Assembly (NCBI GenBank): GCA_001822675.1
Contig: MHRY01000013.1
Location: forward strand, 2,024-40,692
Reading direction: 5' to 3'
DNA from: Candidatus Taylorbacteria bacterium RIFCSPLOWO2_01_FULL_45_34b
GTDB lineage: Bacteria > Patescibacteriota > Minisyncoccia > Phycocordibacterales > DSPV01
Length of the DNA: 38,669 nt
This document shows, piece by piece, positions 1,872 to 8,452 of the stretch (positions are counted from its first letter, which is position 1; each line of letters begins with the position of its first letter). The notes under the pieces are model-generated. The model was not told where the DNA came from. It saw only the letters and a list, made by a program, of their open reading frames with translations, and searched no databases. A program made the translations under genes and the position numbers.

Positions 1872-4800
1872 CTATTTTTTAATATCAAGGATAAAAGACA
1901 TGTCATCAATCTCGACTGTCTCACCGAACGTCTCCGCAAAACGCACACCCTTAAGAAGAGTGTTTTTGATGATTTCGGATTTGTTTTTTTCAAGAAAATC
2001 CCTGCCTGCCGGAGATGTTTGGATCGTGAGCGTGGCAAAATCCGAAATGGTAAGACCACTATTTTTACGAAGTTCTTGAACACCGCGAATAAATTCTCTG
2101 ACTTTCCCCTCTTCTTTTAATTCCGCTGTCAACTCGAAATCGAGCTCTACCTCTTCTTCTTGATCTTCAGCAAAAATAACCTCTTTAACATTGATCTCAT
2201 CGGCAATCAAATCCAAAATCTGCTTGTCTGAAACTTTTAACTTTTTACTTTTCACTTTCAACTTCTTAAGAGGTTGCCTCACTTTAATTCCCGCTTTGGC
2301 TCGAAGTTCCAAAGCAATGGAAACAATCCTTCGCACTTCGGCCATGTTCTCGATGATTCCTGAATCCTGATTCCTGATTCTTGATTCTACTTTTGGCCAC
2401 GACTCAAGATGGACGCTCTCGGGGTCGGAGCCTCCGCGAAGTTTCTGATACATTTCTTCGGCAAAAAACGGAGTGAGCGGCGCCATAATTTTGGAAAGTT
2501 CGAGAAGCACAAAGTGGAGCGTTTGGAGCGCCTGCTCCCTATCCCCAGTTTTTTCTCCATTCTTGAATCCTGCCCGCCCGAACGACTGATATTGTTCAGT
2601 CGGGCGGGAATCCAAATTCCTGAATCCACCCTTAAATCTCTCTCTTGAACGGCGAAGATACCACGTCGAAAGGTCATCAATAAAATCGGCAACCGGTCTT
2701 GCGGCTCGATCAAGTTCGTAAGCTTCCAGATTAACTGTCACCTCTCTACCAAGTTGAGAGAGCCGCGCCAAGATCCAGCGATCTAAAACATTCGCATTTG
2801 GTGATTGTTTATTGGTATTTGATGATTGCTTTTTTTCTGCATAAAGCAGAAAAAAGGCTAAAACATTATCAAGTCGCTGAATAACTTTTTTCAGAATCTC
2901 GCCAACCTCTTTCTCACTAAAACAAAAATCTTGAGCGCGTGAAGCGGGTGATGCCAAAAGATAATAACGCATAGCGTCAGCACCGTATCGTTCTACCACC
3001 TCCATCGGGTCAGGGTAATTTTTAAGATGTTTTGACATCTTCTGGCCATCCTCGGCAAGCACCGTACCATTCACCACCACATGCTCATACGCGGCTCTAT
3101 CGAAAAGTCCGACAGAAAGAACGAGCGTGGAATAAAACCAGCCGCGCGTTTGGTCTAATCCTTCCGCGATAAAATCCGCCGGATAACCTTTTGGTTTTTT
3201 GAAAAATCCGCCTCTCGGATCAAACGTATCCTTATTTTCGAACGGGTAATGAACTCCCGCGTACGGCATCGATCCGGATTCAAACCAGCAATCAAACACC
3301 TCGGGAACCCGCCGCATAATACCGCCACAAGAACAAACAAAAACCACACTATCAATGTACGGACGGTGGAGGTCGAGCGCGTAATGTTCGTTATGGGGAA
3401 GCGGCACAAACGGTATTTCTTTGACTTCAGCGTTTTTGATAAAGAAGTCAGTTGTTCCTCGGGCTGTAACCGCACGGTCGAGATCGTGTCCCCCCGCGAC
3501 AGACTCAAGAAGCCACGCCGGAGAATCATGTGTTACCATTAAAATGTTTTTTCCTTCGTATCGCTTGTCGATATTATATATAAACTCACCGACTCTCTTT
3601 GCGATATCAACATAATGCTCGCCGCCCGGGCACGTTCGCTTGAATTGCTCCTCACCGCTCCGGCAATTCAAATGGTATTCGCCGATGGGGCGACCATTAA
3701 AGAGATCGGCCTTAATTTCTCTAAGACGTTCGTCGTATATAATTTTCTCTTTTGGAAACCCGATATGATCCGCGACAATTTCCGCTGTTTCTTTAGTCCG
3801 AAGAAAAGGCGAAGAAATAATAAGGTCAATCTTTTTCCCGAGAAGCGTCTTCACAGCCGCTTTAACCTGCTCTTTGCCTTTTTCCGTCAAATGATGGGGG
3901 TTGTTGGGGTAAGAACTGACCACGCCGAGCACATTGTTCTCCGCCTCGCCGTGACGCATCAGAAGATAATTGTTTCGAGGCTTCGCACTGTCTTTCAGAT
4001 CTTCAATTGAACCGACAAACTTCATCTTTTCACACTGCTCGCATTTCCAAACCGGAATAGGCGCGCCGAAGTACCGTGAGCGTGAAATCGCCCAATCTCG
4101 AATGCCGGAAAGCCAATCACCGAAACGATTCTCTCCCACTTCCCTCGGCACCCACCTGATTTTATTATTTTCCGCGATGAGCTTTTCTTTGAGAGCCGTT
4201 GTTTTGACAAACCACGACGACGAGGCGAAGTTGAGAAGCGGCGTTTCGCAGCGCCAGCAGTGTGGGTAGGAATGCGTGATTTTTTCCTTGGCAAAAAGCA
4301 AACCGCGATTGGCGATATTTTTGAGAATTTCAATATCCGCCCGAGAAGGATCGTCTTTCGGTTTTACGTCGATACCAGCGAAATCTTTGATCTCCGGAAC
4401 AAATTTGCCGTCAGTCGAGACATGCCGGATAAGCGGCAGACCTTCGAGCTCCGCCAAAGCAAGATCATCTTCACCGAAAGCTGGCGCGATATGAACAACA
4501 CCGGTGCCTTTTTCCAAGGTCACAAACGGCGCGACATACACCTTCCACGCTTTTTCGATGCCCTTGATGCGTGCATCTTTGTAATAATTAAAAACCGGTT
4601 TATAAGAAAGGTCAACAAGCTCGCTTCCTTTATATTCCTCGACAATCGTGTACTCCTCTTTTATAAGAGAAAGTTTTTCCTTGGCCAAAATATAGCGACT
4701 CTGCCCCACTGCCACTTTGACGTAGACAATGTCGGGGTGGACCGCGAGCGCCACGTTCCCCGGCAGCGTCCACGGCGTCGTCGTCCAAACCAAAAAACAA

Positions 4801-5459
4801 GTGCCCGGCTCACGGGTCAGTTCAAATTTCACATACACCGAAATGTCGGTAACGTCTTTGTAACCCTGACTGACTTCAAAATTAGAAAGGGTGGTGCCGC
4901 ATCGAGGACAGAGATGCATTGATTTGAATCCTTCGTAAATCAGACCTTTTTTATGGAGTTCTTTGAAAGCAAACCAGACGCTCTCGGTGTATCTCGCGTC
5001 CATGGTCTTGTAGTCATCATCCATATCAACCCATCGTCCGGTACGCGGAATAATTTCTCTCCACTCTTCGGCGTAGCGAAGCACTGCCTCTCTGGCCACA
5101 CGGTTGAATTTTTCAATACCGAGCGTTTCGATATCGCGCTTGGTTTTAAGCCCCAGTTCTTTTTCAACGAGATTTTCAACTGGCAATCCGTGACAATCCC
5201 AACCCCATCGTCGACGAACATGATACCCTTGCATGGTTTTGAACCGCGGGATGACATCTTTAATCGTGCCTGCCAAAATGTGCCCATAGTGAGGCAGGCC
5301 AGTCGCAAACGGCGGGCCATCATAAAAGACAAACTCGCCTTTTGGCGCTGGCTTTTCAAGCGACTTCTCAAAAATCTGTTTGCGTTTCCAAAAAGCGAGA
5401 ACAGCCTCCTCTCGTTCGGCAACCTTTAACTTTTGTGGGTTTTGTTCCTGCTCTGGCAT
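1872..5459 (-). CDS. ileS: Isoleucyl-tRNA synthetase (type 2, HYGH) with inserted histidine-phosphatase domain
   Basis: DGPPFATGLPHYGH, GWDCHGLPVE, WTTTPWTLP, DWAISRSRYFG, FIAEGLDQTRGWF, KMSKH; extra domain with LMRHGE...SSPFLRTKETA...LRE...VTH. Confidence 0.97.
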   Translation of the reverse strand: MPEQEQNPQKLKVAEREEAVLAFWKRKQIFEKSLEKPAPKGEFVFYDGPPFATGLPHYGHILAGTIKDVIPRFKTMQGYHVRRRWGWDCHGLPVENLVEKELGLKTKRDIETLGIEKFNRVAREAVLRYAEEWREIIPRTGRWVDMDDDYKTMDARYTESVWFAFKELHKKGLIYEGFKSMHLCPRCGTTLSNFEVSQGYKDVTDISVYVKFELTREPGTCFLVWTTTPWTLPGNVALAVHPDIVYVKVAVGQSRYILAKEKLSLIKEEYTIVEEYKGSELVDLSYKPVFNYYKDARIKGIEKAWKVYVAPFVTLEKGTGVVHIAPAFGEDDLALAELEGLPLIRHVSTDGKFVPEIKDFAGIDVKPKDDPSRADIEILKNIANRGLLFAKEKITHSYPHCWRCETPLLNFASSSWFVKTTALKEKLIAENNKIRWVPREVGENRFGDWLSGIRDWAISRSRYFGAPIPVWKCEQCEKMKFVGSIEDLKDSAKPRNNYLLMRHGEAENNVLGVVSSYPNNPHHLTEKGKEQVKAAVKTLLGKKIDLIISSPFLRTKETAEIVADHIGFPKEKIIYDERLREIKADLFNGRPIGEYHLNCRSGEEQFKRTCPGGEHYVDIAKRVGEFIYNIDKRYEGKNILMVTHDSPAWLLESVAGGHDLDRAVTARGTTDFFIKNAEVKEIPFVPLPHNEHYALDLHRPYIDSVVFVCSCGGIMRRVPEVFDCWFESGSMPYAGVHYPFENKDTFDPRGGFFKKPKGYPADFIAEGLDQTRGWFYSTLVLSVGLFDRAAYEHVVVNGTVLAEDGQKMSKHLKNYPDPMEVVERYGADAMRYYLLASPASRAQDFCFSEKEVGEILKKVIQRLDNVLAFFLLYAEKKQSSNTNKQSPNANVLDRWILARLSQLGREVTVNLEAYELDRAARPVADFIDDLSTWYLRRSRERFKGGFRNLDSRPTEQYQSFGRAGFKNGEKTGDREQALQTLHFVLLELSKIMAPLTPFFAEEMYQKLRGGSDPESVHLESWPKVESRIRNQDSGIIENMAEVRRIVSIALELRAKAGIKVRQPLKKLKVKSKKLKVSDKQILDLIADEINVKEVIFAEDQEEEVELDFELTAELKEEGKVREFIRGVQELRKNSGLTISDFATLTIQTSPAGRDFLEKNKSEIIKNTLLKGVRFAETFGETVEIDDMSFILDIKK
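2573..2608. repeat. 36-bp palindromic REP-like repeat inserted in frame in ileS
   Basis: CCCGCCCGAACGACTGATATTGTTCAGTCGGGCGGG; its reverse complement matches 19254-19289 at 35/36 positions. Confidence 0.9.
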
Positions 5460-5460
5460 A

Positions 5461-5757
5461 TACCCGATAAACTTTTTAGCTATTAAAAAAGTTGCATAAT
5501 ACTTTCTTTATATAATTTCGACCCCATTGCGTTTTTAAATACTTTTCGCGTTGAAACGCGTCTTTTTGATTTAAAAATGCTTCGTAATAAATCAACCGTA
5601 AAGGCACTCTTCTAGCGGTGGAAGCAACTTTTTTTGCATTATGCAGTTGCAATCTTTTCCGCAAATCGCTCGTACAACCGGTATATAAGTTATGATCAGC
5701 CCTGCTCTGTAAAACATACACATACTGCATAATGGTAGCTAAAAAGTTTCGCGGGTA
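5461..5757. mobile_element. Putative GIY-YIG mini-element bounded by 22-bp inverted repeats
   Basis: 5461-5482 TACCCGATAAACTTTTTAGCTA and 5736-5757 TAGCTAAAAAGTTTCGCGGGTA are 20/22 complementary and enclose only the GIY-YIG ORF. Confidence 0.6.
5476..5730 (-). CDS. Stand-alone GIY-YIG nuclease family protein
   Basis: YVYVLQS...LYTGCTSDLRKRLQLHN...LIYYEAF...A..REKYLK. Confidence 0.92.
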   Translation of the reverse strand: MQYVYVLQSRADHNLYTGCTSDLRKRLQLHNAKKVASTARRVPLRLIYYEAFLNQKDAFQREKYLKTQWGRNYIKKVLCNFFNS

Positions 5758-5789
5758 AAAAAGCGCTAGAATATGATGATTCTAGCACT
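5756..5789. repeat. Left copy of 34-bp direct repeat bounding the DGR cassette
   Basis: TAAAAAAGCGCTAGAATATGATGATTCTAGCACT, identical to 8419-8452; internal inverted repeat GCTAGAAT/ATTCTAGC; overlaps the RT stop codon. Confidence 0.95.
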
Positions 5790-6774
5790 ATTTCAGGAAT
5801 TTTGAAATTTTATTTTGCAAACCATATGCATTACCATGCTTCAATAATCCAATATATGAAATGATACTTTGAGGTGTTGGATTCTCGTTAATTCGCTTTA
5901 TCATTCTTCTTTTTGTACTTGTCCTCAAAACTCGATGTTTTGGAAAATTCACCCAGCCTAAAAAATCAACTCCAGAAGCAACTGTTTGTATGAAAACTTT
6001 GTCAGGGTGTAATTCTAGTTTTAACTTCTCATGTAGATATCTTACGATATATCGTAAGACAACTTTCAACTCTTTTTTATCTCCAGATAAAATCACAAAA
6101 TCATCAGCATACCGAATGTAGTATTTAATTTTTAAATTATGTTTAACATATTGATCAAATTCGTTCATGTAAATATTGACTAAAAGCTGGGAGGTCAGGT
6201 TACCGAGTGGTAATCCTATTCCCTTATTTGTGGAGCAAAAACTTTCTACTATATTCTGGATAAGCCACAAAATATCTTTGTTTGGTATGTATTTGTCGAG
6301 AATTTGATAAAGCAAAAAATGGTCAATGTTCGCAAAGAATTTTTTTATATCACACTTAAGCACCCACACTGTTTTTGTATTATTTTTACTAACACGAAAA
6401 AAATATCTTCTGAATGTTTCCACTGCTTTATGTGTGCCCTTCTGAAGTCGGCACGAGTACGAATCAGTCGCAAATACTCTGTCAAAAAACGGGTACAACT
6501 TTCTATACAAGGCACGATGAAGCAGTCTGTCCCTCACACTTGCCTTGTGAATATCACGGGGTTTCGGGTCAGAAATTTTGAAATGCTTATACGGTTCATG
6601 CTGATATGTCTTATCTTTAAGCTCTTGATGCAAAGAGAAAATATTGTCCATAAGCCGTAATTGAAATTCCTGTACATCCTTTTTTTTCCGCTTCCCTTTT
6701 ATAAACTCTTGCCATGCACCAAGTAAATTCTCGATAGAAATGATATCGTTATATGTATGAGCGAATTGAATCAT
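5788..6774 (-). CDS. DGR reverse transcriptase
   Basis: 328 aa RT with GLPLGNLTSQ and YIRYADDF motifs, KCDIKKFF, DFLGW; no endonuclease domain; adjacent to the TR. Confidence 0.95.
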   Translation of the reverse strand: MIQFAHTYNDIISIENLLGAWQEFIKGKRKKKDVQEFQLRLMDNIFSLHQELKDKTYQHEPYKHFKISDPKPRDIHKASVRDRLLHRALYRKLYPFFDRVFATDSYSCRLQKGTHKAVETFRRYFFRVSKNNTKTVWVLKCDIKKFFANIDHFLLYQILDKYIPNKDILWLIQNIVESFCSTNKGIGLPLGNLTSQLLVNIYMNEFDQYVKHNLKIKYYIRYADDFVILSGDKKELKVVLRYIVRYLHEKLKLELHPDKVFIQTVASGVDFLGWVNFPKHRVLRTSTKRRMIKRINENPTPQSIISYIGLLKHGNAYGLQNKISKFLK

Positions 6775-6856
6775 TCTCCTAACGATACCCCCCCCCCGAG
6801 CACTTTTTCAACAGAAACTCGTTCCCGTTATTCTTAAACTTAAAGACGCCTATGGT

Positions 6857-7189
6857 TTGTGGCAAAAGTATCTGGCACATTTTCCCAAAGCTAATCGTTT
6901 TACTCTTGGATCAAAAATAGACGAGGTATTTCTTGCGACCATTGAATATTGCTTCCTTGCAAGTTACGCAAACGTACAGGAAAAAATGCCCCTGCTTAAT
7001 CGTTGTATTTCAAGAGTTGACCTTCTTAAGTTATTGCTTCTCCTTGCATGGGAAATCAAAGCGCTTGATACAAAAAAATATATTCATCTCTCCGAACACA
7101 TGGTAGAAGTAGGTAGAATGCTTGGAGGCTGGAGACGTCAACTCGTAAACAAAACTCCCCTACCTAAAAAGGAAGGGGAGAAATCGTGA
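6857..7189 (+). CDS. avd: Avd-like (bAvd four-helix-bundle) DGR accessory protein; the true start is probably ATG 6757, out of frame at a C10 tract (6788-6797)
   Basis: FPKANRFTLGSKIDE...VDLLKLLLLLAWE...MVEVGRMLGGW is Avd-like. The frame stays open upstream (VPVILKLKDAYGLW) with no ATG/GTG/TTG before 6857. Confidence 0.82.
   Translation: MWQKYLAHFPKANRFTLGSKIDEVFLATIEYCFLASYANVQEKMPLLNRCISRVDLLKLLLLLAWEIKALDTKKYIHLSEHMVEVGRMLGGWRRQLVNKTPLPKKEGEKS
7155..7180 (-). other. Hairpin just 3' of TR (TR-RNA spacer region, inside the avd 3' end)
   Basis: CTCCCCTACCT-AAAA-AGGAAGGGGAG, 10 pairs with one mismatch. Confidence 0.5.
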
Positions 7190-7194
7190 TAGTG

Positions 7195-7320
7195 GCGCAC
7201 CGCGAGGAACCGGTAGTTGCCATTCCAGTCATTGTCAAACCAATTGAGGTTGAGCTTGCGCTTCGAGTCATACTTGTCGAGGTAGAGGACGTTGCGATTA
7301 CCGTTGACCTTCGCGACGGA
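7195..7320 (-). repeat. DGR template repeat (TR)
   Basis: 126 bp aligns ungapped with 7654-7779. Conceptual translation SVAKVNGNRNVLYLDKYDSKRKLNLNWFDNDWNGNYRFLAVR, rich in AAY codons. Confidence 0.96.
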
Positions 7321-7563
7321 GCTTTGTATAAAATACCTTCCAAACCACTGCCTGTCGAAAACTCCGCAGTAGTCTCAAGGCTGTATCGTATTCGTGATGT
7401 ATAGTATCACCTAGTATTTCACACCAACTGTCTCTGATTTTTTACGGAAACCAAGTGGCACTCTTCGGGAAGCCATAACCGCCCGAACTCTCACCTCTTG
7501 GGTTGCGGACAAATTACCCAAAGCCGTAACCTTGGATTTTTCATTTGTCACTTTTATTTTAGC

Positions 7564-7607
7564 AAAAAAAATGACCCTCCAAAACTTTTTCAAGTTTCAA
7601 AGGGTCA
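7564..7607 (-). terminator. GAAA-tetraloop hairpin plus U8 downstream of VR (terminator and/or DGR target-recognition hairpin)
   Basis: Minus strand UGACCCUUUGAAACUU-GAAA-AAGUUUUGGAGGGUCA (16 bp, 3 G-U) followed by a U tract, about 46 nt after the VR end. Confidence 0.8.
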
Positions 7608-7647
7608 AAGTGCCTAAGGGCAAAACCGAGAGACAAGGTGCAGAGAA

Positions 7648-8283
7648 CTATTTGCGCACCGCGAGGAACCGGCAGTAGCCACCCCAGCCACAGTCAAACC
7701 AATGGAGGTAGAGCCGGCGCCCCGAGCCACACTCGTCGAGGTAGAGGACGTAGCGATCACCGTGGACCCGCGCGACGGAACCAAGTTCTACAATTGGAAA
7801 CTCTCTCTGCACTTGGGGATTGTGTTCCCCGAAAGCCAGAAGTTCTTCAGTCGCCGCCGGTCGGTAGCCTTCTTTATCCATTTCTTTGATGGCGTCTTCT
7901 GACGAAATGTACCGCCCGAAATGAAACAGGGCGGATTCCACCTGACGGCTTCCTATACCTTTTATCGGAAATCGCTCTTCAGTGATCTCGGAATTCGTCC
8001 AGTCGTACTTGCCCGCCCCAATCATCTCCGGAAGAGGGCGACAATTGACAGCGAACGTGTATGGAGTGATTGTAGGTTTCAGAATGGGCGGGGTAATTAG
8101 AGGAAGACCAAGAAGTGCACGAATGCCATCGCGTTTCGTTGTATCAAGACTTCCGGCCTTGGCGGCTTCGAAAACGTCGGTGATAATGCCGGAGCAAATC
8201 GCCGTCTGCAGTTCCTTGTCCGTAAGCTCTTTTTGTTGAGCAAGCTCGAGCAATTTGCCTGCCTGTTTGAGGGTTGCGTTCAT
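7648..8283 (-). CDS. DGR target (variable) protein with C-terminal VR, probably CLec-like fold
   Basis: Ends ...LYLHWFDCGWGGYCRFLAVRK. The ORF-track start TTG 8367 lies upstream of the predicted TSS, so ATG 8283 or 8349 is more likely. Confidence 0.9.
   Translation of the reverse strand: MNATLKQAGKLLELAQQKELTDKELQTAICSGIITDVFEAAKAGSLDTTKRDGIRALLGLPLITPPILKPTITPYTFAVNCRPLPEMIGAGKYDWTNSEITEERFPIKGIGSRQVESALFHFGRYISSEDAIKEMDKEGYRPAATEELLAFGEHNPQVQREFPIVELGSVARVHGDRYVLYLDECGSGRRLYLHWFDCGWGGYCRFLAVRK
7654..7779 (-). repeat. DGR variable repeat (VR)
   Basis: 21 differences from TR, all at TR adenines (13 A>G, 4 A>T, 4 A>C); invariant GC-rich 3' end CGGTTCCTCGCGGTGCGC. Confidence 0.96.
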
Positions 8284-8368
8284 CGCAAGCCTTTCTGTGT
8301 TTTGCAGTCCGTGTTTAGCGGGTGCGTTGATTATCAAAACCAGCGTCATGCCGATTTCTACTGACAAA

Positions 8369-8398
8369 ATACTAGCATAAGTAGGCTATATTTGTCAA
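8369..8398 (-). promoter_or_regulatory. Sigma70-like promoter for the DGR target gene
   Basis: TTGACA-N18-TAGTAT with extended TG on the minus strand. Confidence 0.6.
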
Positions 8399-8418
8399 TA
8401 GCCGTTGCAGAAACGTAT

Positions 8419-8452
8419 TAAAAAAGCGCTAGAATATGATGATTCTAGCACT
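8419..8452. repeat. Right copy of 34-bp direct repeat bounding the DGR cassette
   Basis: Identical to 5756-5789. Confidence 0.95.

Follow-up and report, generated by a model that had tools for sequence, protein, structure and literature searches.

An uninterrupted run of ten C near the 5' end of avd, in a chromosomal DGR of Candidatus Taylorbacteria bacterium RIFCSPLOWO2_01_FULL_45_34b, is on balance probably a hypermutable contingency repeat that gates Avd, perhaps the reverse transcriptase (RT) as well, and that is OFF in this copy. Because a length-unstable repeat recurs at this place in more than 100 relatives, a random on/off switch of hypermutation is the most likely role of the C run.

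The window, that is, the whole stretch of DNA that was analyzed, comprises 38,669 nt (assembly GCA_001822675.1, contig MHRY01000013.1, positions 2,024-40,692). Its host is a tiny groundwater bacterium belonging to the CPR (Patescibacteria). The features of the locus are, in window coordinates:

5788..6774, minus strand: DGR reverse transcriptase, 328 aa, intact (RVT_1 match and motifs)
6744..6749, plus strand: predicted avd -10 box TATCGT, with TG at 6741-6742 before it, 7 nt before ATG 6757 (sequence)
6757..6837, plus strand: ATG 6757, start of avd, with an out-of-frame stub of 26 codons that runs to TAA 6835-6837 (frame translation)
6770..7189, plus strand: Avd body frame, open from 6770, helix 1 from about 6821, stop at 7187-7189 (Pfam, NCBIfam, AF2, Foldseek)
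6782..6811, minus strand: predicted RT promoter, TTGAAA (6811-6806), 18-nt spacer holding G10, TATCGT (6787-6782) (promoter scan)
6788..6797, no strand assigned: C10/G10 homopolymer, putatively hypermutable repeat (sequence and run count)
7190..7320, minus strand: template repeat (TR), sense on the minus strand (TR/VR comparison)
7648..8367, minus strand: DGR target gene, 239 aa (ORF call)
7649..7779, minus strand: variable repeat (VR) at the 3' end of the target gene (TR/VR comparison)

RTs of the DGR type are characterized by an RVT_1 domain, a YxDD motif and an [LIV]GxxxSQ motif. The RT of the window scores 88.1 bits against RVT_1 (cut-off 29.6) and carries LGNLTSQ and YADD in its translation. 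TR and the first VR differ at 23 positions in 131 nt, 21 of which are TR adenines (33 A in TR), and a second VR on contig C35 shows 16 A-to-N differences and 2 others. As judged from these adenine-placed differences in both VRs, the DGR was functional in the past. The target gene matched nothing in Pfam or NCBIfam. The genome carries a second DGR (contig C42) with a C9 run at the same position, an avd gene that is likewise out of frame, and an RT with ATT in place of the ATG of its relatives. At a completeness of 91%, the genome yielded no MutS1.

Reading from ATG 6757 (phase 1) yields MSELNHSPNDTPPPSTFSTETRSRYS up to TAA 6835-6837, and the Avd body lies in phase 2. The frame of TTG 6857, which holds this body, is open upstream as far as 6770, directly 3' of TGA 6767-6769. 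Because neither stretch stops beside the tract, loss of one C (C9) or gain of two (C12) joins ATG 6757 to the Avd body. The initial annotation had claimed that the C10 run separates the two frames in this manner and that avd and RT overlap head to head by 18 bp; the frameshift is confirmed, and so is the overlap, the RT ATG lying 13 nt beyond the tract. The C10 run is the only run of at least eight C or G in the window. Its three overlapping C8 matches compare with a mean of 0.49 in shuffled sequences, 5 out of 100 of which reached at least three. Genome-wide (777,556 bp), five G/C runs of at least 9 nt are found, the C10 run among them; the others include C9 on contig C42, G9 on C18 and G9 on C32.

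Identification of the phase 2 frame as Avd is based on both profile and structure comparisons. The protein scores above the cut-off for Pfam bAvd (PF22296; 48 bits versus 40) and below that for NCBIfam Avd (NF033474; 65.3 bits versus 80). Its AF2 model (P0001) is a four-helix bundle with a pLDDT of 86.7 (helices 18-35, 40-65, 69-95 and 101-128) that was matched by Foldseek to the Avd chain 4dwl_C (E 3.4e-3; TM 0.72 by query and 0.90 by target), as well as to the DGR RNP 8ub7. Identity to BPP-1 Avd is only 15%, and a sequence-profile search of the PDB with Avd returned no matches. The sole common start codon (ATG, GTG or TTG) in the Avd frame before the end of the conserved core is TTG 6857. 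It corresponds to residue 30 of the model, inside helix 1, so that a start at this annotated codon costs the helix 12 of its 18 residues. The stretch lost in this way looks essential: L22, L24, K25 and Y28 are invariant across 45 homologues, and the NCBIfam profile begins 12 residues ahead of TTG 6857. The earlier proposal that helix 1 of Avd lies 5' of TTG 6857 is thereby borne out. Gene callers shorten Avd, here to 110 aa from TTG 6857, and the cluster of this 110-aa ORF has 4 members on 3 contigs.

We also considered a start located 3' of the tract but ahead of the Avd core, and rejected it, as the body frame of the window holds no ATG, GTG or TTG from 6770 up to TTG 6857 and none is conserved there in the relatives. 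Upstream of the tract, ATG 6757 fits a leaderless arrangement that is common in this genome, with TATCGT 7 nt before it: Shine-Dalgarno motifs are scarce (23 of 306 long ORFs), and TAnnnT peaks 6-9 nt 5' of ATGs (88 of 304). The predicted avd -10 box is confounded by the RT coding sequence on the opposite strand. Use of the upstream ATG is further suggested by a comparison among relatives, in which five of six loci without an uninterrupted repeat are in frame with it, versus 35 of 125 with the repeat (Fisher p = 0.010). Since the conserved N-terminal peptide and its ATG are antisense to the conserved N-terminus of RT, their conservation is not independent evidence of coding.

To assess conservation, 180 sequences were compared, namely the window plus 179 loci that were retrieved (the best 80 of 537 genome matches, the best 80 of 513 metagenome matches and 19 loci from related genomes). 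Twenty-two were excluded (11 truncated 5', 3 masked, 2 lacking a match and 6 lacking a tract), and the remaining 158 loci formed 134 clusters at 95% identity. A repeat is present at the same spot of avd in all of these related CPR clusters, being an uninterrupted poly-C in 125 of 134 and a (GA)n of 13-35 nt in the other 9. One distant relative has (CT)n at the same place. The poly-C runs range from C5 to C13 with a mode of 9-10 (C5, 2 clusters; C7, 12; C8, 14; C9, 36; C10, 46; C11, 8; C12, 5; C13, 2). In two housekeeping genes of the window, no more than 11 of 76 Pro codons are CCC, so that codon usage does not account for the purity of the run. The initial annotation had predicted variable-length poly-C at the avd 5' ends of CPR DGRs, which is what was found, and had named homologues beginning 3' of the tract as one observation that would speak against a switch; the homologues do not begin there.

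The Avd body is free of stops in 133 of the 134 clusters, but relative to an upstream ATG all three phases occur. Of the 125 poly-C representatives, 35 have the body in frame (ON) and 5 have it so via GTG or TTG only; 39 need a shift of -1/+2, 33 need +1/-2 and 12 have ATGs in both other frames, together 84 in the OFF state, and 1 has no ATG. In the most uniform class, 12 of 48 are in frame (p = 0.28 against 1/3). In-frame loci (35 of 125) are thus no more frequent than expected by chance, and nothing therefore shows selection for ON. The same scatter would arise if the frame of the DNA were irrelevant, as with slippage of the RNA or the ribosome, or if the start were not upstream of the tract. 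Taken at the sequence level, intact bodies combined with scattered frames appear to be the signature of a switch and not of decay.

Repeat length also varies among relatives that are otherwise near-identical, as far as assembled sequences can tell. In six locus pairs (850-nt flanks 99.6-100% identical, whole aligned loci 98.1-99.95%) the tract is the only indel: L001/L103 (C12/C13), L014/L015 (C9/C10), L029/L134 (GA13/GA11), L033/L139 (GA23/GA29), L039/L144 (C7/C8) and L174/L178 (C8/C7). Tract length is equal in about nine independent pairs. Three of the six pairs toggle between ON and OFF, and two move between two OFF states. In the three ON/OFF pairs, 23 of 24, 6 of 7 and 18 of 20 substitutions fall within the VR, and no VR differences are seen in the one ON/ON pair and in the one OFF/OFF pair whose VR lies inside the locus, this comparison comprising five pairs only. 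Part of the homopolymer variation between assemblies could stem from sequencing error, and the two members of a pair may in some cases derive from common reads; such error is a less easy explanation for the (GA)n differences, which amount to 2 and 6 nt.

With respect to the length of the run in the window itself, the tract is covered by one Logan contig each of the sequencing runs X1 (depth 42, 1143 nt) and X2 (depth 25, 905 nt), which read C10 with 0 differing letters and 0 gaps, although X1 and X2 are perhaps the source data of the window. At the contig level, both runs contain C10 alone and one dominant VR. The VR-bearing contig is about 25% shallower than its flanks in X1 and X2, contig depth being too coarse for interpretation. 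No Logan contig of X8 covers 6741-6848, and contigs of X9 end exactly at the tract with one unmatched letter at a depth below 5, which is a hint only. A scan with exact-flank patterns, in metagenome contigs from which records near the window's genome may be missing, gave 0 matches to other tract lengths of this very locus, and among 60 related genomes no close relative was found, the best match being 70% identical.

Several other explanations of the C10 run have to be weighed. The real tract might be C9 and avd plainly intact, long G/C homopolymers being prone to assembly and sequencing errors; the X9 contigs stop at the tract, X8 has no contig there, and the runs that contain 0.98-0.99 of the words are perhaps all source data of the window. 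We consider such an error very unlikely in view of the gapless C10 in Logan's independent assembly of X1 and X2, of the roughly two thirds of the 125 independent relatives that are likewise out of frame, and of the second DGR of the same genome, which is out of frame too. Even less credible is that avd is a pseudogene within a dying DGR, as could be read from its broken frame and from the ATT codon in the second RT. Against this, the Avd body, RT, TR and target gene are all intact, practically all related Avd bodies lack stops even though their frames scatter, and the VR differs between near-identical relatives. A more serious but still unlikely alternative is recoding, in which slippage of RNA polymerase, or of the ribosome on tRNA-Pro (CCC, with a PPP stall), gives some Avd at any tract length; the run would then be an attenuator that holds Avd low, and its genomic length would drift freely. 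Identical codons in all frames permit perfect re-pairing at slippery sites, and a C run presents CCC codons in every frame. Recoding would also accommodate ATG-relative frames in all three phases without enrichment of in-frame loci, the two near-identical pairs that shift between out-of-frame states, and the intact gene bodies. What counts against it is that no one direction of shift is conserved, unlike in programmed frameshifts, and that the (GA)n sub-clade and the (CT)n relative carry dinucleotide repeats, which are classic sites of DNA slippage and not of ribosomal slippage. Moreover, EF-P, the reliever of PPP stalls, is present (171.6 bits, just below the cut-off of 185.8), and the length of the DNA demonstrably differs between near-identical loci. 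A run search for RNA data sets holding the locus yielded none.

Rather unlikely as the main explanation, too, is that the run is kept chiefly for RT, as the promoter spacer of a leaderless RT mRNA or as another 5' element of the RT/DGR RNA, whose length would adjust how strongly RT is transcribed; the consequence for the avd frame would be tolerated as a by-product. The promoter scan does find TTGAAA-18-TATCGT on the minus strand over the tract, and the predicted -10 box ends 7 nt before the RT ATG at 6774. In 54 of the 125 representatives, the RT ATG lies exactly 13 nt after the tract and a near-invariant TAnnnT adjoins it (T.87, A.98, T.98), and TAnnnT 6-9 nt ahead of the ATG recurs genome-wide. 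Furthermore, TTGNNN together with the tract gives spacers of mostly 15-19 nt, and G9 followed by TAATTT also occurs upstream of secA (contig C18). A spacer, on the other hand, needs no pure homopolymer, and the -35-like TTG may not be a promoter element, because its position follows the edge of the tract (peak at 7 nt, 23 of 125) and because it is antisense to a conserved Gln codon. Most members of the (GA)n sub-clade have their repeat 3-13 nt downstream of the avd ATGs, yet at least 43 nt away from the RT start. Poly-C and (GA)n thus differ in their distance to the RT start, and their common feature is the avd frame. A role of the run in RT expression is nonetheless compatible with a contingency switch and may simply add to it. 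The G run was also considered as the Shine-Dalgarno site of RT, and rejected given its distance of 13 nt from the ATG and the scarcity of such motifs in this genome.

If the C10 run is a contingency repeat, as we favor, translation of avd would begin at ATG 6757, the mRNA being probably leaderless, and would have to pass through the run into the four-helix bundle. Slipped-strand mispairing during replication would alter the run by at least one base and thereby place the Avd body in or out of frame: C10 would give only the 26-residue stub (OFF), and C9 or C12 full-length Avd (ON). In the Bordetella phage DGR, the only system in which this dependence is known to have been tested, RT cannot synthesize cDNA without Avd as its partner. 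Given this requirement, the run would make hypermutation of the two VRs heritable, reversible and stochastic; we infer Avd dependence in this host, as well as the reversibility and the rate of switching. The OFF state would presumably be tight, and switching would presumably take place within this population. The run also fills the predicted -35/-10 spacer of RT, which measures 18 nt at C10 and would measure 17 nt at C9. Owing to this position, one and the same slip may also retune RT transcription.

More tentatively, and with less than even likelihood, the repeat might be a two-sided master switch across much of the CPR that sets both the avd frame and the RT promoter spacer and so releases bursts of diversification. 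The mutator would then itself be under the control of a mutator, OFF would be its usual resting state and the bursts would be heritable, and the VRs of surface or binding proteins would be rewritten on the same short timescale as tract slippage.

The regulation of DGRs is largely open, and unchecked adenine mutagenesis of the target gene is risky for a cell. A stochastic, heritable gate in more than 100 CPR lineages, if real, would explain how hypermutation is confined to a subpopulation in ultra-small bacteria, why many avd genes of CPR DGRs appear frameshifted or are annotated as truncated four-helix-bundle proteins, and why metagenomes show VR diversity only in patches. Contingency loci, known from pathogens, would moreover gain environmental episymbionts as hosts. 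Gene callers shorten such Avds, and DGR surveys may count these cassettes as lacking an intact avd. In the literature that was searched, no paper on a repeat-gated avd was found.

Among known systems, the DGR of Bordetella phage BPP-1 (bRT-Avd; 4dwl, 8ub7; PMC6182149; 10.1101/2023.10.23.563531) resembles the locus in having RT, Avd and TR together with a VR that is changed at adenines, and the two Avd folds match (TM 0.90 by target). In BPP-1, the gene order is avd-TR-brt on one strand. Here, by contrast, avd is divergent from RT with a head-to-head overlap, and TR is antisense to and downstream of avd.

Intragenic poly-G/C contingency loci of Campylobacter jejuni, Neisseria and Haemophilus undergo translational phase variation by slipped-strand mispairing. 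Shared with these loci are an uninterrupted G/C run of about 8-13 nt in the 5' coding region, a length that differs between otherwise identical genomes (here between near-identical loci of relatives) while the body stays intact and the frame is scattered, and an apparent absence of mismatch repair. Instead of a surface or restriction-modification gene, on the other hand, the gated gene is one for an accessory factor of targeted hypermutation, the hosts are CPR bacteria of groundwater with a free-living or episymbiotic life, and switching is here a putative trait. Phase variation through promoter spacers is known from poly-G in Neisseria porA and opc, from (TA)n between the divergent hifA and hifB of Haemophilus influenzae, and from the poly-C of the Bordetella pertussis fim genes. 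The present run resembles these in lying between the predicted RT -35 and -10 boxes at a junction of divergent genes, where a slip would change the spacer from 18 to 17 or 19 nt; it differs in also coding for the opposite gene, in that the promoter is a predicted one and in that the mRNAs are apparently leaderless. Finally, in phasevarions a simple repeat switches a DNA methyltransferase gene with epigenetic regulation as output. There too, the repeat-switched gene changes many downstream phenotypes and provides second-order bet hedging at the population level, but the output of the switch proposed here would be sequence diversification of one or two target genes.

The start at ATG 6757 and the body of Avd, the accessory factor of the diversity-generating retroelement (DGR), lie one phase apart, and no stop adjoins the C10 tract in either frame; therefore, C9 or C12 would join ATG 6757 to the Avd body, in agreement with the initial annotation. 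The features are as follows.

Features of the DGR locus in the window
5788-6774, minus strand: RT ORF (328 aa), starting 13 nt beyond the tract
6757 (ATG) to 6835-6837 (TAA), plus strand: out-of-frame stub ORF, reading MSELNHSPNDTPPPSTFSTETRSRYS
6788-6797: C10 run in the window sequence
6770 (after TGA 6767-6769) to 7187-7189 (stop), plus strand: open Avd body frame
7190-7320, sense on the minus strand: template repeat (TR)
7649-7779: variable repeat (VR), at the end of a 239-aa target ORF

The RT ORF and the ATG 6757 ORF overlap head-to-head by 18 bp. Before the end of the conserved core, TTG 6857 is the sole ATG, GTG or TTG in the Avd body frame. The tract is the window's only C/G run of at least 8, and the whole genome (777,556 bp, 44.9% GC) has just five G/C runs of at least 9, this one included.

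The Avd body scores 48 bits with Pfam bAvd (cut-off 40) and 65.3 bits with the NCBIfam Avd model, under its cut-off of 80. An AlphaFold model of the body-frame protein, drawing on 45 homologues and with pLDDT 86.7, folds as a four-helix bundle that matches the Bordetella phage Avd structure 4dwl (TM 0.90, normalised by target) and the Avd chains in the DGR ribonucleoprotein 8ub7. RT is recognized by RVT_1 (88.1 bits), with LGNLTSQ and YADD in the translation. Of the 131 positions compared between TR and VR, 23 differ, and 21 of these are adenines in TR (minus strand). The locus is thus a bona fide chromosomal DGR that was functional in the past. Its layout is unusual: avd is divergent from RT, and TR lies downstream of avd and antisense to it. 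A second, remote VR, partly masked and 77% identical to TR with 16 further A-to-N differences, is located on another contig (C35:5643-5763) at the end of a 232-aa ORF.

Perfect 34-nt direct repeats (5756-5789 and 8419-8452), each with a short palindrome inside, flank the entire cassette of RT, avd, TR and target. They occur only twice in the genome, and assembled public contigs (Logan) break at both, which suggests that the cassette was inserted or is excisable as a unit. Directly adjoining the left repeat, an 84-aa GIY-YIG nuclease ORF (5476-5730, minus strand; Pfam 56.5 bits) flanked by 22-nt inverted repeats (5461-5482/5736-5757) may be a small mobile element. The neighbouring IleRS (1195 aa; 1872-5459, minus strand) carries a His_Phos_1 histidine-phosphatase domain inserted in its catalytic domain (102.6 bits, residues 499-661).

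Three points favour ATG 6757 as the putative Avd start. There is no start codon between tract and core in the window, and none is conserved there in relatives. An upstream ATG is in frame at five of the six loci that lack an uninterrupted repeat, versus 35/125 of those with the repeat (Fisher p = 0.010). TATCGT lies 7 nt upstream of ATG 6757, and genome-wide TAnnnT is over-represented at 6-9 nt ahead of ATGs (88/304) while Shine-Dalgarno motifs are scarce (23 of 306 long ORFs), suggesting leaderless mRNAs, which may be the rule in this genome. Conservation of the N-terminal peptide and its ATG proves little, since both are antisense to the conserved RT N-terminus. The alternative that homologues start downstream, at the TTG, did not hold: helix 1 (residues 18-35 of the model) begins upstream of this codon, and a start there, at residue 30, would cost 12 of the 18 modelled helix residues. 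The NCBIfam profile already aligns from its position 2 at 12 residues ahead of the TTG, and the residues invariant in the 45-sequence alignment (L22, L24, K25 and Y28) all precede it.

Avd homologues are plentiful (276 proteins at E ≤0.001). We analysed 180 sequences: the window and 179 fetched loci, namely the best 80 of 537 matches in species-representative genomes, the best 80 of 513 in metagenome contigs and 19 from related genomes. We left out 22 (11 truncated at the 5' end, 3 with masking, 2 lacking a hit, 6 lacking a tract), and the remaining 158 formed 134 clusters at 95% flank identity. The variable-length poly-C expected at avd 5' ends of related Patescibacteria (CPR) was indeed seen: among these loci, 125/134 clusters carry an uninterrupted run 0-24 nt upstream of helix 1 (C5 in 2, C7 in 12, C8 in 14, C9 in 36, C10 in 46, C11 in 8, C12 in 5 and C13 in 2), and in the other nine this position is taken by a (GA)n repeat, 13-35 nt long. 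More distant relatives have, at the 5' end of avd, (CT)n out of frame (L101) or short (CA)n runs in frame (L027, L073). CCC is uncommon among proline codons (11/76 in the window's IleRS and ArgRS genes), so it is the DNA sequence of the homopolymer that is preserved. The genome also holds a second DGR (C42:2674-4072; Avd model E 8.8e-9, with an RT-like ORF), in which the open frame of the Avd-like ORF starts right at a C9 tract in the equivalent position, out of frame with a nearby ATG. In its RT, ATT replaces the relatives' ATG 13 nt after the tract and an in-frame TTG lies just before the tract. The C9 run may lie in both genes.

In six locus pairs with 850-nt flanks 99.6-100% identical (98.1-99.95% over whole aligned loci), the repeat is the sole indel: L001/L103 (C12/C13), L014/L015 (C9/C10), L039/L144 (C7/C8) and L174/L178 (C8/C7) differ in poly-C, L029/L134 (13/11 nt) and L033/L139 (23/29 nt) in (GA)n. 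About nine pairs from different contigs had equal tract lengths; equal-length pairs from one contig fetched twice were left out of this count. In three pairs the frame switches between in (ON) and out (OFF), and there 23/24, 6/7 and 18/20 substitutions fall inside VR, whereas VR differences are 0 in L001/L103, out of frame in both members, and in L033/L139, in frame in both. The numbers are small, and for some pairs reads may be shared. Even so, nothing but tract slippage and VR rewriting changes fast at these loci. MutS1 was not found in the genome (91% complete); EF-P is present.

The first 95 codons of the Avd body are stop-free in 133/134 clusters. An in-frame ATG with an open path lies at most 60 nt upstream in 35 of the 125 poly-C representatives; 5 have only GTG/TTG in frame, 39 need -1/+2, 33 need +1/-2, 12 show an ATG in each of the other two frames and 1 lacks any ATG. 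Five of nine (GA)n representatives are in frame. Stop-free bodies combined with scattered phase are how a contingency gene looks. Under decay, stops would accumulate in the bodies, and a programmed frameshift would hold to one direction; the pattern fits neither, and we regard decay of avd as highly improbable. The main point against a simple switch is that the in-frame share does not exceed chance (for the most uniform class, 12/48 tested against 1/3 gives p = 0.28); RNA-level or ribosomal slippage, making OFF leaky, seems rather unlikely. Assembly error is very unlikely, because Logan, an independent assembler, gives C10 gap-free and without other letters in runs X1 (1143 nt at depth 42) and X2 (905 nt at depth 25), both possibly the window's own source; the check covered assembled contigs. 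The locus is present in nine public runs, none of them RNA. X8 has no contig over 6741-6848, and contigs of X9 break off precisely at the tract on both sides, leaving one letter unmatched at depth <5, a weak hint of another length. The contig holding VR and target (7518-8448) is about 25% less deep than its neighbours in X1 and X2, and none crosses VR in X8 or X9; minority VR variants could underlie this, contig depth being too coarse to tell.

Read on the RT strand, TATCGT comes immediately after the G run, then 7 nt and the RT ATG, and a promoter scan lists TTGAAA-18-TATCGT across the tract. The tract would thus serve as the predicted RT promoter spacer (18 nt at C10, 17 nt at C9). In the 54/125 representatives with the RT ATG exactly 13 nt after the tract, the key -10 positions are conserved (T.87, A.98, T.98); the spacer part is uncertain, since the -35-like TTG moves with the tract boundary and is antisense to a conserved Gln codon. 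That the tract is mainly an RT-side promoter element, though compatible with gating of Avd, is quite unlikely: in most members of the (GA)n sub-clade, the repeat lies 3-13 nt after avd ATGs, far from the RT start, so the avd frame is the function that both repeat types share, and a promoter role comes on top of it. The same G-run and TAnnnT arrangement occurs at C18:8436-8444 (G9, then TAATTT), some 140 nt ahead of a secA-like ORF, where it may form a further promoter sensitive to run length.

We consider it fairly probable that a slipped-strand contingency repeat gates Avd, probably tunes RT and, in the majority form sequenced here, is OFF. Changes in tract length would bring the Avd body in or out of frame with the upstream start, and the same slip would probably tune RT as well. 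A DGR gated in this manner was not found in the literature searched, a scope outside which the main CPR DGR paper falls; homopolymer phase variation as such is well known.
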